Part shown: positions 42,992 through 49,886 of the stretch, one piece after another
Layout: every line of letters starts with the position of its first letter
Position numbering within the stretch: the stretch's first letter is position 1
From: Escherichia phage HMD-9
DNA length: 64,000 nucleotides
Direction: 5' to 3' (one strand)
Sequence record: PV287714.1
The notes under the pieces: model-generated
The model's input: the letters and a program-made list of their open reading frames with translations, nothing else
Database searches by the model: none
Told to the model about the DNA's origin: nothing
Program-made: the position numbers and the translations under genes

Positions 42992-43168
42992 TCAAGTATT
43001 GTAAAACATTCGATGCAATCGCTTATATTGCCGAATCATCTTTTTAGTAGGACGAGAATAAGTTCCTACACAAGTGGTCATATTAGGGTCTGTAGAATTT
43101 CCTTTAATAAAAAGTTTCCAAACCTTACCACCATTTAACTTTTCAGTATAAATCAATTCAGTTTTCAT
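42992..43168 (-). CDS. hypothetical small protein, 58 aa
   Basis: ORF below track cutoff; ATG overlaps stop of upstream gene (TAATG). Confidence 0.35.
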   Translation of the reverse strand: MKTELIYTEKLNGGKVWKLFIKGNSTDPNMTTCVGTYSRPTKKMIRQYKRLHRMFYNT

Positions 43169-43632
43169 TAAAATGCTCGGTCAGAAAAAGAAATTTGAGT
43201 TTCAAGCCATTCAATATATTCTGCCGCAGCTTGCATCAGGTTACCTTCATAACCATCGTTATTTTCTTGCGCAGCTAATTTAGCTAATGCATATGAAATG
43301 CGTTCACCCTGAAAAGCGGCTTTAGGTTTATGAATAGCTTGATCAACTCGTTCTACGACTTCTTCAATTTCGCCGTTTTCTACTGATTCAGTATTCCATA
43401 GGCACCAATATGTAATTGGCTTATCATAGATGTTAATAACCTTTCCGTCAGAAAGTTCAATTTCAATAATTCCAGTATCAGGTTCTATATCATCTTCACA
43501 TTCTTTCGCAAGTTCACGAACTTTAAAGACAGTACCTGCACTAAGTTCTGGCCAGTAATTACACAACCCTTTATCAGCACGATTAATTCTAAACCACTTA
43601 TCTACTGTAATCATGTCCCATCTCCATATCAA
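43168..43632 (-). CDS. hypothetical protein (pin/49.x region)
   Basis: 154-aa track ORF. Confidence 0.55.
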   Translation of the reverse strand: MIWRWDMITVDKWFRINRADKGLCNYWPELSAGTVFKVRELAKECEDDIEPDTGIIEIELSDGKVINIYDKPITYWCLWNTESVENGEIEEVVERVDQAIHKPKAAFQGERISYALAKLAAQENNDGYEGNLMQAAAEYIEWLETQISFSDRAF

Positions 43633-43736
43633 TTATGTCATTTATTGTAGGTTCATTATATACTGTTTCTTCATCAGTGTAAACCGGTTCTTCCGGCTCT
43701 GGCTCTACAGTTTCCCATCTAACCGCCCACCAGGGT

Positions 43737-43946
43737 TTAACCCCGAAGCTTATTAAGTTCTTCATAATCAATCCAGGATTCTAATCCTGATGGCAAATCA
43801 GATTCAATTTCCCAAAGAAGCTCTTCAATTTTCTGAAGACGATCTAATTCTTCAGCTGGAATAGTAACCATTGACGGAGTTCTTGATACACTAATATCGT
43901 AAATCATATTTACCCCAGTTTGACCATACAATCGCCGTATTTCCAT
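43737..43946 (-). CDS. hypothetical small protein
   Basis: 69-aa track ORF. Confidence 0.45.
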   Translation of the reverse strand: MEIRRLYGQTGVNMIYDISVSRTPSMVTIPAEELDRLQKIEELLWEIESDLPSGLESWIDYEELNKLRG

Positions 43947-44125
43947 TTAGAAATAGACTTTTCACCATTAGAATAATAAACTTCGAGTTTAGCACGATTA
44001 TTTTTAATTTGAATAACCTTTGCTGTCATCAAAGTTCCATACCCGTAATAAACTGCAACCTCATCACCTACATATACCGCGCTTCCGCGGTAGTCATGGA
44101 TATAATCAGTTCCTTCAAGCATCAT
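43910..44125 (-). CDS. hypothetical small protein
   Basis: 71-aa track ORF. Confidence 0.45.
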   Translation of the reverse strand: MMLEGTDYIHDYRGSAVYVGDEVAVYYGYGTLMTAKVIQIKNNRAKLEVYYSNGEKSISKWKYGDCMVKLG

Positions 44126-44385
44126 TTAAAGTATTCCCGCAATTGGTCAAATCCACCAATATGACTTCCATCAGGAGCAAATACCTGAGGCATCGTCAAA
44201 CCAATTTGAGTATCACGACCAAGTTTAGTCAGAAGCTCAGCGATTTTCTCATCATCAAAAACACCTTTTTCTGGCATAATGTTGATAAATTCAAACGGCT
44301 GTTTCTTCACAGTCAAGAGACGTTTTGCATTATCGCAATACACACATTTATGGATGTTGCTATCATAACCATATACTTTAAACAT
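44122..44385 (-). CDS. nrdC: thioredoxin/glutaredoxin NrdC
   Basis: 87-aa track ORF; CVYC active site; matches T4 thioredoxin. Confidence 0.93.
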   Translation of the reverse strand: MFKVYGYDSNIHKCVYCDNAKRLLTVKKQPFEFINIMPEKGVFDDEKIAELLTKLGRDTQIGLTMPQVFAPDGSHIGGFDQLREYFK

Positions 44386-44386
44386 A

Positions 44387-44629
44387 TTATTCCTTAATTC
44401 CTAGTACTTGTTTAAAAGTCTCGTCGTAATCAAGACTTTGGCCCGTTTGTTCTTTATGTTTGTATATAATATCACTTACTTCTGATAGCATATTTTTATA
44501 TGAACGAGTTAAAGCAGATTTAAGCACACTATATCTATCAGGAAATTTACCATGTTCATTATAATAAGCTATTGCTAATTCACGGACTGCCTTTTCAGCA
44601 GTCTCCATATATTCTTTACGCTTTGTCAT
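44387..44629 (-). CDS. hypothetical protein
   Basis: 80-aa track ORF. Confidence 0.5.
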
Positions 44630-44698
44630 TTTCTTCTCGGTTAAATCGGTGTTTGCAATGACGGCATTTATAACGAAGATTACTAGTCTGCCAATGGA

Positions 44699-44932
44699 CT
44701 AATTGAACCTGTTCAGTACCGCATTTTGGACAGTTCGGAACATTCTTAGAAGACCTTTCGCGACGTTCAACCATAGCCATAATAGCATCCAAGCAGGAGG
44801 TTTAAAGTCTAGATCGTCACAACCATGAATCTTTCCGCGCATTTCTAGATCGTCTTCTTCACCAGCCATAATAATTTTAATTAGACTGGAATTACTTGAA
44901 GCTGCAATATCTTCTAATAAACGCTTTTTCAT
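44699..44932 (-). CDS. hypothetical small protein
   Basis: 77-aa track ORF. Confidence 0.45.
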   Translation of the reverse strand: MKKRLLEDIAASSNSSLIKIIMAGEEDDLEMRGKIHGCDDLDFKPPAWMLLWLWLNVAKGLLRMFRTVQNAVLNRFN

Positions 44933-45855
44933 TTCAGTACCTCAATAGCATCACGTAAACCATTTGCTTTTGCATTAAGAGCTTTTAACAATTTGGTATG
45001 TTCGGCAATCTGGGCTTCAACTTCAATCAAACGGGCACTGAGATATTCGCGTTCTTCTTTCATAGTATCATTCCCATGATTAGGCTTTGGCGTAGGTTTA
45101 AATTTACTAGGGTCCTTTAACTTAATAACAACTTTAGTTTCAAACAGTGAAAGACCATAATTCGTATTATCGTCAAAGGATTCAACTACGTCCATTTTAG
45201 ACAATAACGTACGAAGATTATAAGTCAAAGAACGAATCGTTTTATTATGTTTATTAGCTTCACGCGGTTTCATATATGGAAGATTTTTATATATTTCATG
45301 CGGAGCACAAACAATAATTGACAATTCAAATGGTCCATTCTGTGATGATGGAATAAATTTAGCCGTAACCCAATCTTTTACATTTACATTAATAGTACGG
45401 TCATCGCCATGACAAAACAGTCTACGAGAATGCTTAAAAAGCATATTCACATTATTATTAAATTCATGTGAAAACTCACTAGCAAATTTTTCTTTACTAT
45501 TTTTAGAAAACCATTCTTCTAAATAAGTTCTTTTCACGTCATTAATAATATTAAATGTAACAACATTAGCATTTGATACATTAGTCTCAATGTAGCTTGG
45601 ATACATAAATTTTTTAACATTATTAACAGCTATTACAGAAGATAGTAATCGGGAACGTTTGAACCACTCTAGCAAAGAACCAAGAGAATGTGAATATGCA
45701 TTTTGTGTATCTTTACAAATATGGTTTTCCCATCCAATATAGTCTAAAAAATCACGAAGAATATTATTGATTACTGCTCTATGTCCTATCTGATAATTAC
45801 GATGTTTAGTAATAAGACTGTCAAAATAATCAATATAATGTTTACGAGTTTTCAT
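44929..45855 (-). CDS. hypothetical protein with C-terminal coiled coil; paralogue family member 1 of 4
   Basis: 308-aa track ORF; N-term MKTRKHY; C-terminal heptad-like LLKALNAKANGLRDAIEVLK. Confidence 0.6.
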   Translation of the reverse strand: MKTRKHYIDYFDSLITKHRNYQIGHRAVINNILRDFLDYIGWENHICKDTQNAYSHSLGSLLEWFKRSRLLSSVIAVNNVKKFMYPSYIETNVSNANVVTFNIINDVKRTYLEEWFSKNSKEKFASEFSHEFNNNVNMLFKHSRRLFCHGDDRTINVNVKDWVTAKFIPSSQNGPFELSIIVCAPHEIYKNLPYMKPREANKHNKTIRSLTYNLRTLLSKMDVVESFDDNTNYGLSLFETKVVIKLKDPSKFKPTPKPNHGNDTMKEEREYLSARLIEVEAQIAEHTKLLKALNAKANGLRDAIEVLK

Positions 45856-45907
45856 GTTCTTCTCACTTGGTTAATGATTTATACTCCGAGCCATCCTTGG
45901 CTTTAAA

Positions 45908-46909
45908 TTACTTAATTAACTGTAAAGCTTGTTCAAGACGATCCAGACGATTAACAGATTCTTCCCAAATCCTTTTAGCCTGCTCATATTCTTTCTGCGC
46001 TTTATTAGAAATTTCTAGAACTTCTTTATAAGCCTTTTCTAGTGCAATAACTTCTGGACGAATTTCTACAGGTTCAGGCGAATCATCAAGATTATCCATT
46101 AGTTCCTCAAGTGTAATTTCTTCTTTAGGAGTATTCACAATTTCATCACATTTTTGTTGGTAAATTTCTTTATCAGTCGGTGAGTACGCACATTTCACTT
46201 CACGAAGACTAACTACAATTTTATATCCTTCCCAACCGCATATATTCTTAAAAGGATACGTATGAATATTTTCTACTGTTTCCATACAAAGTAATGCGGT
46301 TTCTAATTGACGAGTTATAGTGCTAGCAATTGAGAAAAATTTATTAATGTTCTTTTGGTTAGTTTCTGGTGTAAAAAATCCATAATTCACAAAAATAGAT
46401 ACTTTATTTTTATCAAGTTCATATTCTTTTATGATAATCATATCAGAAGCCAAAGGATGAATTTGACGATAATCGCCATAACATAATTTAGAAGCTGATT
46501 TTAGAATCTGTCCTTTGAAAAGTCTGAAATTACTAATCCAACGACGAGTAAAAATATTCTCAGGGTCTTCTTTATTATTAAGATGATAAGAATTATCATC
46601 ACCGAACCAATTATATCCTACTACATCTTTGGTTCGTTTAATTTCTTTCCCAAAATTACCAAGAATATCCCGATTAACCAAATATGAAAGAAGACGAGAC
46701 TCTTTAAAGGTTTTCTTGATAACATCTTTATCTACACGACTAGAAATTTTACGAATTTCATGAATAAATTTAGTAGAAGAAACAATACCTGCATCAACAC
46801 TATTGAGCCATTGATTGATAATAGAAATAACGCTATTTTGACCAAACATCGGTATAGCTTTATCATCAATAACACTATTGAATGATTTGATATATTCGTT
46901 ACGAGTCAT
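45908..46909 (-). CDS. hypothetical protein with C-terminal coiled coil; paralogue family member 2 of 4
   Basis: Track ORF trimmed to MTRNEYIKSF (GAGGAG SD; longer start reads through promoter); 333 aa. Confidence 0.6.
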   Translation of the reverse strand: MTRNEYIKSFNSVIDDKAIPMFGQNSVISIINQWLNSVDAGIVSSTKFIHEIRKISSRVDKDVIKKTFKESRLLSYLVNRDILGNFGKEIKRTKDVVGYNWFGDDNSYHLNNKEDPENIFTRRWISNFRLFKGQILKSASKLCYGDYRQIHPLASDMIIIKEYELDKNKVSIFVNYGFFTPETNQKNINKFFSIASTITRQLETALLCMETVENIHTYPFKNICGWEGYKIVVSLREVKCAYSPTDKEIYQQKCDEIVNTPKEEITLEELMDNLDDSPEPVEIRPEVIALEKAYKEVLEISNKAQKEYEQAKRIWEESVNRLDRLEQALQLIK

Positions 46910-46937
46910 ATTAATCTCCTCAGTAGAAAGTAAGAAC

Positions 46938-46967
46938 ATTATACCACATCCTTGTGGCAAAGTAAAC
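46938..46967 (-). promoter_or_regulatory. T4-type early promoter, near-identical duplicate of 2244-2273
   Basis: Reverse complement GTTTACtttgccacaaggatgtggTATAAT. Confidence 0.6.
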
Positions 46968-47995
46968 TAGTTCAGTGCATTTAGTGCATTGTTCAGTTTA
47001 GAACGTTGCTTTGTCAGATTTTGAACCCTTGACTGAGCTTGTTCTAACACCTTTTCAGCTTCTAGCACTTCATTGGTCGCTTTAACGAGTTCATCATCTA
47101 CTGCCTTAAGAGACTTCTCAATCGCGTCAGCGTGCCATTTTTCTACAGGTTTAAAATTTGAATTTTCAGTAGGAAGAAAACTCACTTTATTAAGTTTACA
47201 TGCATCTATATTGCTTGAGCTATACATCCAAAATTTAGGATCGTTTGATGAGTAATTGGATAAATTTAAATTTAAGTTATCTTGCACTTCCTGCTTTTTC
47301 TCTTGCGTGACTTCGTCCTTTCTCAAAAAATCGTATTTAAATGAAACGATCATATCAAGTTCATACGTTGTTGTATGTTCCCAATTTCGCTCAAAACGAG
47401 GTAAAATCTTAGATTGAACAGCAGCAACAACATCCATATACTTAAATGCTTCTGTCAGCTGTGATTTAAGACATTCACAAATTGAAAGAGAATTTTTTGT
47501 ATTAGGTTTAAAGCTAATTCGTGCAGTTCTATTATTTTCTTTTAATGGTCTTACTTCCATCTGAAGAGTATAACCATCAAATTTCAGGTTCTTTAAGTTA
47601 ATGTCAGAACCTTTTAATCGACTAGCCGTCGACAAAATTTGCTTTAATTGTCTACGGAACAGAGCAATAAATCTCCATTCAATACGATAATGATTTGGAT
47701 TGAAAAATCCAGATGATAAATCGACCTTACTTTGACCAACGCCTTGAACAAATAGAGGATTTTTATAATCAATAGTTTTACAGAAATCGGTGAGCTGCTC
47801 ACGAGCCGTCATTTGCGTAATATACCCCGCTTTACTAAAATGACGTAACCATTCACTGCTATTCGTATACTTAAAGTGATGAATAACACGATTAACTTTA
47901 TCAGGGTCTAAATTATTTTCACACAAAAATGTCATAACATTACGAGTATAGCTGGCATTACGAACCATATCTTCAATTTGAGAACGAGTTTTCAT
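46967..47995 (-). CDS. hypothetical protein with C-terminal coiled coil; paralogue family member 3 of 4
   Basis: 342-aa track ORF; N-term MKTRSQI; C-term coiled coil. Confidence 0.6.
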   Translation of the reverse strand: MKTRSQIEDMVRNASYTRNVMTFLCENNLDPDKVNRVIHHFKYTNSSEWLRHFSKAGYITQMTAREQLTDFCKTIDYKNPLFVQGVGQSKVDLSSGFFNPNHYRIEWRFIALFRRQLKQILSTASRLKGSDINLKNLKFDGYTLQMEVRPLKENNRTARISFKPNTKNSLSICECLKSQLTEAFKYMDVVAAVQSKILPRFERNWEHTTTYELDMIVSFKYDFLRKDEVTQEKKQEVQDNLNLNLSNYSSNDPKFWMYSSSNIDACKLNKVSFLPTENSNFKPVEKWHADAIEKSLKAVDDELVKATNEVLEAEKVLEQAQSRVQNLTKQRSKLNNALNALN

Positions 47996-48003
47996 GGTGT
48001 TCC

Positions 48004-48909
48004 TTAAGATTTAAGTAAATCAACAATTTTAATTAACTTTTCACGCTCAGATTTAGCTTTACTACTCAATCCAGATAGTCTGAAAATTTCATCGTCATAT
48101 TGTTGAATAGAAATATTCAGCTCTTCAATCTGCTTATTAAAATAATCAATTTGTTCAGAATGTTTTTCGTTACTACGAACTGGTACAGGTTTTGCAGGCA
48201 ATGTAGTTGAACTGGATTCATTCGGGCGATAAATTAAAATACAACTTGAACCAATAGGGCATTTTGCACCAGATGAATATTCTAATGTTCCAGCTTCTTT
48301 TAAAACTTCAAAAGCTAAACAGAGATGATGCCCCATATTAACATAATCTGTAGAGTGAGCTCTGATGTAATAATCATCGCCACGAATACTAAATTTAAAG
48401 CATTTAAGGTCTTCTGTATTATTGGTCTTAAAAATCATTTGTTTATCTAGACCTTTAGCTAATCGAGCGCCCAATGCTAATAATCGTCGTTGATTTTCCC
48501 ACAAATCCGCAATCATTTGATCGAATGATAATTTTGGCATCAGTCGACCATAAAGGTCATATCCTTTATTATAATTACGAAGAATTTCACTCGCATTAAT
48601 ACGAGACAACGCTCCAATTTTATTAAGGGCTTTCATAATGCGATTAGATAAACTCATTCCAGACCCATTTGTTCGCTGTAAATGTTTTTCTAATCCAAAT
48701 CCAATATCAACTTTAAACTTATCTAAAATTTCTGCATGAACATCTCTGTCAATAACATTCAAATCCAAAGTTGGGTTAAATCTATGAAAAAATTTATCTG
48801 GCTCTCCACGGCGAAATACAGTCCATTCATTCATCATTTTTTTATTAGCTAAAGATTTAATTACTGCATTGACATTATTAATTACTACTGACATATTTTC
48901 CTCACTCAA
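48004..48909 (-). CDS. hypothetical protein with C-terminal coiled coil; paralogue family member 4 of 4
   Basis: 301-aa track ORF; C-term KSEREKLIKIVDLLKS. Confidence 0.6.
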   Translation of the reverse strand: MSEENMSVVINNVNAVIKSLANKKMMNEWTVFRRGEPDKFFHRFNPTLDLNVIDRDVHAEILDKFKVDIGFGLEKHLQRTNGSGMSLSNRIMKALNKIGALSRINASEILRNYNKGYDLYGRLMPKLSFDQMIADLWENQRRLLALGARLAKGLDKQMIFKTNNTEDLKCFKFSIRGDDYYIRAHSTDYVNMGHHLCLAFEVLKEAGTLEYSSGAKCPIGSSCILIYRPNESSSTTLPAKPVPVRSNEKHSEQIDYFNKQIEELNISIQQYDDEIFRLSGLSSKAKSEREKLIKIVDLLKS

Positions 48910-49303
48910 TTTTACTAATTATGCGGAATATGATTGAACAGACTATATAAGTACCACACACAGATTGAACTAATACCATTCCAAAGAACCAAACAATATT
49001 ATCAAACAATGTCTGTTTTACGTCGAAAGGACGTAAACTTACAGTAATATTATCACCTTTTTCTATTGAAGAATACATCTCTGGGAAAATATATTCACTA
49101 AATCTATAACCGTCTTTGAGTTCATATACGGCAATAAACGATAAACTAGACCCTTTTCCTTGTGTTCCTGTAATGGTATTAACTACAGTAACATCATAAT
49201 CTTTATAATGCATATAATCATTAATAGCATAATAACCGTATGCAACTACTACGCATAAACAACATATCAATAAATTCAATCTTTTAATTATCAACTGTTT
49301 CAT
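48902..49303 (-). CDS. hypothetical membrane protein
   Basis: 133-aa track ORF with N- and C-terminal TM helices. Confidence 0.5.
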   Translation of the reverse strand: MKQLIIKRLNLLICCLCVVVAYGYYAINDYMHYKDYDVTVVNTITGTQGKGSSLSFIAVYELKDGYRFSEYIFPEMYSSIEKGDNITVSLRPFDVKQTLFDNIVWFFGMVLVQSVCGTYIVCSIIFRIISKIE

Positions 49304-49358
49304 AATAATCTCAATTAAAAGGGCTTAGAACCATTATACCATCCTTGATATAAAGCGA

Positions 49359-49886
49359 TTATGCGAGTACCGTCTTTAACCGTTCTTCAAACTTCCGAAG
49401 AGTATTTTGGCGTTCAGCTCTTTGCTTTTTGTAAGTTTCAATACGCTCTGAAATGAGAGTGTATCGTTCATTTACTGATTCTTTCATAAAATCAGGAATT
49501 TCACGAGAAGCTTTAATCTCATCAAATTTATCAATAACAGCTTGCTCTTCAGCAATTAAGTTATCATACATTAAAATATCTTTCTCGATGAACTCAATAT
49601 CTTCTTGAGTTACACGAGATAATTTAGATGCTTTATCCTTTTTGTACTGTTCGTTAGTATCACGAGACCAGTGTAATGTACGATTTTTATTCGTATTCTT
49701 GTAAATTTCTACAATACCAATTTCATCAATAATAACGATCCAATTCCAACGGGATTTGTAAATTTGTCCTCCATCAACAGTGATTTCACCTCCGATTGAG
49801 ATGTCGTTAAAGAACTTACTCTGTGCTTCAGATTTAAATTTACCATCGTTGTAATTTACCAAGTTGAAAATATCTTTAGCGTTCAT
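49359..49886 (-). CDS. hypothetical protein with C-terminal coiled coil
   Basis: 175-aa track ORF directly downstream of PeSL cassette. Confidence 0.55.
   Translation of the reverse strand: MNAKDIFNLVNYNDGKFKSEAQSKFFNDISIGGEITVDGGQIYKSRWNWIVIIDEIGIVEIYKNTNKNRTLHWSRDTNEQYKKDKASKLSRVTQEDIEFIEKDILMYDNLIAEEQAVIDKFDEIKASREIPDFMKESVNERYTLISERIETYKKQRAERQNTLRKFEERLKTVLA

Follow-up and report, generated by a model that had tools for sequence, protein, structure and literature searches.

Four tandem genes of a T4-like phage, nrdC.3 to nrdC.6, are distant paralogues and include candidate anti-defence genes

Between nrdC.2 and nrdC.7 of Escherichia phage HMD-9, four consecutive genes of similar size stand in tandem on one strand, and the question which they raise is whether they make up a single family and what such a family would do for the phage. 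The window analysed here is a stretch of 64,000 nucleotides (nt) of this phage (sequence record PV287714.1), and coordinates are window positions; the four genes occupy 44929-48909 on the minus strand and encode proteins of 296-342 amino acids (aa). A sequence-only reading had correctly noticed them, had taken them for a family of tandem paralogues belonging to the nrdC-tk region, had left them unnamed and had proposed host-takeover or anti-defence functions. They are the one-to-one orthologues of T4 nrdC.3, nrdC.4, nrdC.5 and nrdC.6, and all four are distant paralogues of one ancestral Straboviridae gene, with NrdC.6 the most diverged. As the four T4 open reading frames (ORFs) are thus mutually related, the array does not resolve into four unrelated T4 genes.

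The window segment is that of a Tequatrovirus (T4-like) genome. The region is matched by 506 phage records, and T4 aligns to 100% of it with 95.6% nucleotide identity, the annotation beneath being nrdC.3, nrdC.4, nrdC.5 and nrdC.6. The order nrdC.2, nrdC.3-nrdC.6, nrdC.7 is the same as in T4, and so are the flanks, with nrdD, gp49, pin, nrdC, nrdC.1 and nrdC.2 on one side and nrdC.7 to nrdC.10 on the other. Amino acid identity to the individual T4 orthologues is 93.5-96.4%. On the minus strand, nrdC.3 (44929-45855, 308 aa; 94.8% identical to T4 NrdC.3; phrog_1435, expectation value (E) = 4.8e-101) and nrdC.5 (46967-47995, 342 aa; 93.8% identical to T4 NrdC.5; phrog_2351, E = 2e-167) are the two genes whose products begin with MKTR, as had been noticed before. 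The other two are nrdC.4 (45908-46909, 333 aa, starting MTRNEY; 96.4% identical to T4 NrdC.4; phrog_1435, E = 1.2e-166) and nrdC.6 (48004-48894, 296 aa, starting MSVVI; phrog_2257, E = 7.3e-151). NrdC.5 has the same length and the same neighbours as the T4 protein (PMC9391042) and matches PF23882 (DUF7235) over profile positions 1-307 of 307 at E = 4e-120 and 401.3 bits, against a gathering score of 30 bits.

Mechanically called ORFs extend nrdC.4 and nrdC.6 further upstream to TTG codons (45908-46960, 350 aa, and 48004-48909, 301 aa, respectively). The true starts are probably ATG 46909 and ATG 48894, to judge by sequence signals: a GAGG-type ribosome-binding site (RBS) lies close upstream of both (GAGGAG for the former), and a putative T4 early-type promoter of canonical form for nrdC.4 (46938-46966, minus strand; GTTTAC, 17 nt, TGGTATAAT), recognized by promoter scan and by reading the sequence, falls inside the TTG extension and within the 57-nt gap from the nrdC.5 stop to the nrdC.4 ATG. 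ORFs of 51-60 aa on the opposite strand within the four genes were disregarded as being without support, and Rfam gave no match on either strand across 44000-49500.

By pairwise comparison, the family is visible only in part. BLASTP among the four proteins links NrdC.3 to NrdC.4 alone (23% identity over 274 aa, E = 1e-4); both are in phrog_1435, and their family profiles match at 97.6% HHalign probability (E = 3e-12). The databases agree, as PF26897 (Phage_T4_Y04OP) and PHROG 1435 take in NrdC.3 and NrdC.4 only, whereas NrdC.5 (PF23882, phrog_2351) and NrdC.6 (PF26899, phrog_2257) are filed separately and are joined to the others in the present analysis. PF26897 and PF26899 are absent from the Pfam copy searched and are known here from homologue annotation; PF26899 is in the precomputed annotation of all 105 NrdC.6 homologues found. 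Profiles of T-even relatives of NrdC.4 and NrdC.5 match each other at 22.8-59%, which is suggestive. Iterative hidden Markov model (HMM) searches from NrdC.5 did reach NrdC.3 and NrdC.4, mostly by way of the C-terminal module, and the comparison was therefore tested again with that module trimmed.

The connection is carried by single-copy relatives. HMMER, run exhaustively with the NrdC.5 profile, retrieved 15 proteins at E <= 0.001 among 1.84 billion representatives, and no bacterial or distant homologues were among them. One of the 15, the Marfavirus protein P0200, is annotated with PF26897, yet its C-terminal part matches the NrdC.5 profile. Its relatives in Kanagawavirus (phages IME523 and PEi20) and Mosugukvirus (phage PM2) are likewise single-copy genes directly upstream of nrdC.2. 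A bridge profile built from five such proteins of the three genera matches all three families in colinear fashion: NrdC.3/4 at 93.0% (E = 3.3e-7, 170 columns), NrdC.5 at 97.8% (E = 1.1e-12, 227 columns) and NrdC.6 at 96.0% (E = 3.9e-9, 203 columns). Because coiled coils can give false links, the comparison was repeated minus the last 65 residues. Trimmed in this way, the bridge still matches NrdC.3/4 at 93.7%, and the profile of NrdC.3/4 plus bridge finds the head of NrdC.5 with a probability of 92.0% (E = 6.6e-7); since the latter match survives trimming, the likeness is more than that of a coiled coil. Thus, the paralogy which the sequence-only reading had proposed is borne out by bridges, and NrdC.3, NrdC.4 and NrdC.6 stand to the published NrdC.5 as distant paralogues.

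In these genera, a well conserved, unannotated ORF of 256-261 aa (MLT.II...GWWKLRLT...) lies upstream of the single-copy member, two or three genes away (L019 5269-6042, L020 5247-6017, L022 3458-4243 and L023 1916-2686). It was tried as the equivalent of NrdC.6 in PM2, PEi20, IME523 and Marfa and was rejected (HHalign <= 0.3%).

The four proteins have a common build, consisting of a short variable N-terminus (often (M)KTR), a basic head of predicted alpha/beta type, a disordered, indel-rich linker and a conserved amphipathic C-terminal helix. The C-terminal segments quoted in the sequence-only reading are exact, and their heptad character is above chance: by a simple measure of hydrophobicity at a and d positions, the four proteins hold ranks 1, 3, 4 and 5 when all 70 window ORFs that reach 100 aa are compared, and in the best C-terminal stretch of 35 aa the a/d positions are 80-90% hydrophobic versus 12-36% at the other positions. 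The helix covers approximately residues 265-308 of NrdC.3 (44932-45063, minus strand, as are the following), where the heptad-scored segment falls opposite the terminal helices predicted for NrdC.5 and NrdC.6 in the alignment, and residues 284-333 of NrdC.4 (45911-46060), as placed by heptad score and joint alignment. AlphaFold2 models, which cover NrdC.5 and NrdC.6 and lack Met1 (so that model numbers are protein numbers minus 1), predict a single terminal helix of 58 residues in NrdC.5 (residues 284-342 approximately, 46970-47146; model residues 283-340, predicted local distance difference test (pLDDT) 76-88) and two in NrdC.6, 30 and 18 residues long (residues 243-296 approximately, 48007-48168; model residues 242-271 and 277-294). 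Both models have the same order of elements, namely helices, a helical hairpin, a beta-beta-alpha-beta-beta unit, a disordered linker and the terminal helix; mean pLDDT is 67.5 for NrdC.5, with 78-92 in the head, and 77.6 for NrdC.6.

Within the head, the joint alignment shows a conserved 'FK.SRLLS...A..L.NFGK' helix and a hairpin with 'F..N..lL..a.RL..G.D' ahead of the beta-beta-alpha-beta-beta unit; other shared motifs are the (M)KTR N-terminus, 'P.E..H' ahead of the terminal helix and 'QR.KL..A..aLK' at its end. Conserved columns are mostly hydrophobic, with a few R, K or N. Neither a PDB relative by sequence nor a known fold was detected for the four proteins.

The array grows in size towards T4: Marfavirus, Kanagawavirus and Mosugukvirus have a single copy, Gaprivervirus, Dhakavirus and Mosigvirus have three and Tequatrovirus has four. 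No long DNA repeats occur among the four window genes, and the sole DNA likeness is a 19-nt stretch at the starts of nrdC.3 and nrdC.5 (the RBS and ATGAAAACTCG). As no extended DNA similarity is left among the copies, the duplications must be old. Recombination also acts on the array. In Salmonella phage Manna (L021 4215-5252), the head of NrdC.6 is joined to the tail of NrdC.4 at a common DEI and nrdC.5 is deleted; a metagenomic hybrid unites NrdC.5 and NrdC.3 in one protein; part of NrdC.6 is duplicated within the protein of Shigella phage Sf25, which is 378 aa long; and in one protein an unrelated N-terminal domain is fused to the NrdC.5 helix (the rearranged proteins besides that of Manna are P0056, P0058 and P0194). 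Variation is also uneven within the genes. Two allele types of nrdC.3 that are just 63.5% identical circulate in Tequatroviruses, and among 51 Tequatrovirus sequences of NrdC.5 most of the differences fall in the first 55 residues and in the linker, and the core of the head and the terminal helix change least; the helices of NrdC.6 are nearly invariant among Tequatrovirus copies. Between the window and T4, the ratio of nonsynonymous to synonymous substitution rates (dN/dS) is 0.14-0.23 for nrdC.3-6 and 0-0.06 for gp49, nrdC, nrdC.8 and nrdC.9.

What the family does is known from one member. Srikant et al. (2022, eLife; PMC9391042) found that E. coli ECOR17 resists a deletion mutant of T4 owing to the sirtuin defence gene dsr1, and that T4 nrdC.5, which they term an early gene, restores plating in trans on MG1655 carrying dsr1 from ECOR17. 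The window protein differs from the T4 protein, for which this activity is known, at approximately 6% of residues. A 2026 preprint reports that the tetratricopeptide repeat (TPR) sensor of Dsr1 detects the major capsid proteins of phages and is common to Avs7 and other effector fusions (PMC12803255). All four T4 genes are non-essential by transposon mapping (HIDEN-SEQ), according to the supplement of that study (bioRxiv 10.1101/2025.11.20.689424), and a T4 deletion of nrdC.1-6 is viable (PMC9825161). The neighbourhood is one of inhibitors, since gp49.2 inhibits OLD (PMC13096335), nrdC.1 inhibits Septu and Pin inhibits Lon; the four genes share with this T-even gp49.1-nrdC.x island its location, early expression, dispensability and host-range phenotypes. 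Gp49.2, NrdC.1 and Pin are, however, small single-domain proteins unrelated in sequence, whereas nrdC.3-6 are larger, multi-module and duplicated. The literature searched gave no account of the mechanism of NrdC.5 or of its directly binding or inhibiting Dsr1, and no description of it as one of four paralogues.

Given the published function of nrdC.5, the dispensability of the genes and the inhibitors around them, the best supported reading is that nrdC.3-6 are probably a family, enlarged by duplication, of anti-defence proteins of the binder type that are made early, are dispensable and are not enzymes. Old tandem duplications of one Straboviridae-specific gene beside nrdC.2 gave rise to the four genes, whose products would bind immune proteins of the host stoichiometrically and would have no catalytic role. 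The diverged heads, together with the linker, may set target specificity, and the conserved terminal helix may oligomerize the protein or dock it on its target. NrdC.5 would neutralize the NADase (an enzyme consuming nicotinamide adenine dinucleotide, NAD+) of the Dsr1 sirtuin, the likeliest means being that it occupies or locks the TPR sensor, and NrdC.3, NrdC.4 and NrdC.6 may do likewise to other defence proteins. As NrdC.5 is known to defeat Dsr1, these three are good candidates for acting against other immune proteins, so that the anti-defence function once proposed for the whole array holds for NrdC.5 on the strength of the T4 experiment and is conjectural for its paralogues.

A functional analogue, and a model for the proposed action of NrdC.5, is DSAD1, which comes from a phage lineage and a host other than those of the T4-like phages and is not known to have a coiled-coil tail. 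It is an SPbeta-like phage protein that inhibits the defence-associated sirtuin DSR2 (PMC11087589). The likeness does not extend to the sequence: the NrdC.5 profile against all PDB chains, among which the DSR2-DSAD1 complexes are taken to be on the basis of the same paper, gave only coiled coils of Smc, EmrA and keratin (E >= 0.095).

Several observations weigh against the binder reading or the paralogy beneath it. The experimental link to defence is limited to NrdC.5 and is a rescue of plating, not direct binding, and in one HIDEN-SEQ host-comparison table none of the four genes has a significant fitness effect. Head-only profile signals are uneven: the trimmed bridge matches NrdC.6 moderately (87.6%, E = 3.5e-6, 74 columns) and NrdC.5 weakly (50.9%), and a direct comparison of the NrdC.5 and NrdC.6 profiles without bridges found nothing (0.1-8%). 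The structural evidence has its own weaknesses, as the NrdC.5 model is of low overall confidence (predicted template modelling score 0.50) and Foldseek TM-scores are low (0.17-0.50), the latter because head and helix are differently placed. The dN/dS values also give no positive evidence for an arms race; the label "diversifying" in the sequence-only reading is weakly supported in that nrdC.3-6, with an overall range of 0.13-0.30, lie above their core neighbours, but fails in so far as the values are well under 1. Lastly, all four heads are strongly basic (isoelectric point 9.2-9.5, net charge +8 to +11), which would equally suit nucleic-acid binding.

This charge is the starting point of a different account, in which basic heads dimerized by coiled coils bind DNA, RNA or a host machine, making the proteins nucleic-acid-binding or host-takeover regulators whose effect on Dsr1 is indirect, for example through expression or availability of the trigger. 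Such an account fits genes expressed early, and what the published experiment shows is plating rescue, not binding. Still, we consider it unlikely, as the searches revealed neither a domain nor a fold known to bind nucleic acids, laboratory hosts can be infected without any of the four genes, the sole phenotype known so far depends on one particular defence gene and the genes sit amid proven direct inhibitors.

A bolder version of the binder reading, which we put forward as a quite speculative possibility, is that the array is a modular "anti-sensor" toolkit. Each head would suit a different clade of immune sensors (such as the TPR sensor of Dsr1 and Avs7), the helices would mediate homo- or hetero-oligomers, and copy number and hybrids would tune host range. 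If this were true, gene number (1, 3 or 4) and head/tail hybrids would be direct determinants of host range.

It is improbable, in our judgement, that only nrdC.3, nrdC.4 and nrdC.5 are true paralogues and that nrdC.6 is a look-alike owing to a convergent C-terminal coiled coil and AT-rich composition. The suspicion arises because direct profile matches of NrdC.6 to NrdC.5 and NrdC.3/4 are weak (0.1-39%, E down to 3e-4), the other three families stayed out of reach of iterative HMM searches started with NrdC.6 and the adjacent nrdC.8 ends in a similar helix yet is unrelated. Against it stand the long colinear bridge match of NrdC.6 and the match that is left once the terminal helix is trimmed, which takes in the helix 'ALNK..aLS...A..IL.N' and the hairpin 'LLALGARL..G.DKQM.FKT'. 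Secondary structure of NrdC.5 and NrdC.6 agrees at 73% of 233 aligned columns, as compared with a mean of 43% and a maximum of 53% for shifted controls. The two models also share Foldseek matches in BFVD, all of them uncharacterized Straboviridae proteins (PM2 A0A0A0PZG4, E = 2e-5 and 4.5e-7; fHe-Yen9-01 A0A1V0DXL6; Mineola A0A2Z4QAR2), and the IME523 bridge protein is matched from both sides: the structure model of NrdC.6 finds it at E = 5.9e-7, and a member of PF26897 used in tblastn finds it at E = 2e-9.

An enzymatic role for the proteins, such as restoring NAD+ or a modifying activity, by which they would counter NAD+-depleting defences metabolically, would suit the facts that Dsr1 is an NADase and that phages are known to rebuild NAD+ by NAD+ reconstitution (NARP) pathways, but it is very improbable, given that no enzyme family was matched in Pfam, NCBIfam or PDB, that no cluster of catalytic-type residues is seen in the joint alignment and that the family, with its 15 HMMER matches, is restricted to a few Straboviridae genera.

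Some features around the array deserve mention in their own right. NrdC.8 (175 aa; 49359-49886, minus strand) has a strongly heptad-patterned terminal helix with a KQR motif; on account of its heptad score, which ranks 2 of 70, it was tried as a fifth member of the family and proved unrelated (HHalign <= 0.8%). The T4 reference nrdC.6 (AF158101.6; L001 7064-7961) is annotated with 275 aa because of a frameshift inside the region of the C-terminal helix, the rest of which is readable in another frame; the gene is intact at 296 aa in the window, in most relatives and in the T4 annotation of the HIDEN-SEQ study (891 nt). In Gaprivervirus, Dhakavirus and Yersinia phage vB_YenM_P8, nrdC.6 is separated from the nrdC.5-like gene by a small ORF of 62-71 aa (L002 5763-5978, L003 4855-5043 and L005 4826-5041); the window lacks such an ORF, its gap between nrdC.5 and nrdC.6 being 8 nt.

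On the nrdC.2 side, the window orthologue of that gene (44616-44932, minus strand, 317 nt) is broken into two ORFs that overlap and are 58 and 77 aa long. Compared with T4 and an IMG/VR Tequatrovirus it is a longer central variant in which one base is missing (GC-TTGGATGC versus GCATGGGATGC), and nrdC.2 is therefore either frameshifted or affected by a sequence error. Between gp49 and nrdC (42992-44125, minus strand), the window has small ORFs of 58, 154 (pin-like), 57, 69 and 71 aa, which differ from the T4 sizes (pin 161, 49.1 51, 49.2 106 and 49.3 102 aa). Judged from ORF sizes alone, no ORF of the size of gp49.2, the published anti-OLD gene, is present in this interval.

These genes are long-catalogued T4 ORFs, one of them with a published function and two of them, nrdC.3 and nrdC.4, already paired in databases. 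What is new is modest and incremental, namely the four-way paralogy and the union of the four genes with the single-copy Straboviridae genes into one superfamily with a modular build. Approximately half of the genes of T4 are without known function although it is the best-studied phage, and nrdC.3, nrdC.4 and nrdC.6 are among them; their paralogy to an anti-Dsr1 gene turns three "hypothetical proteins" into specific counter-defence candidates. The variable head and linker and the conserved helix provide a domain map for experiments. If the binder reading is right, the array would be a clean example of an anti-defence family that grows by tandem duplication and is reshuffled by recombination in a "hyperplastic" region of the phage genome.

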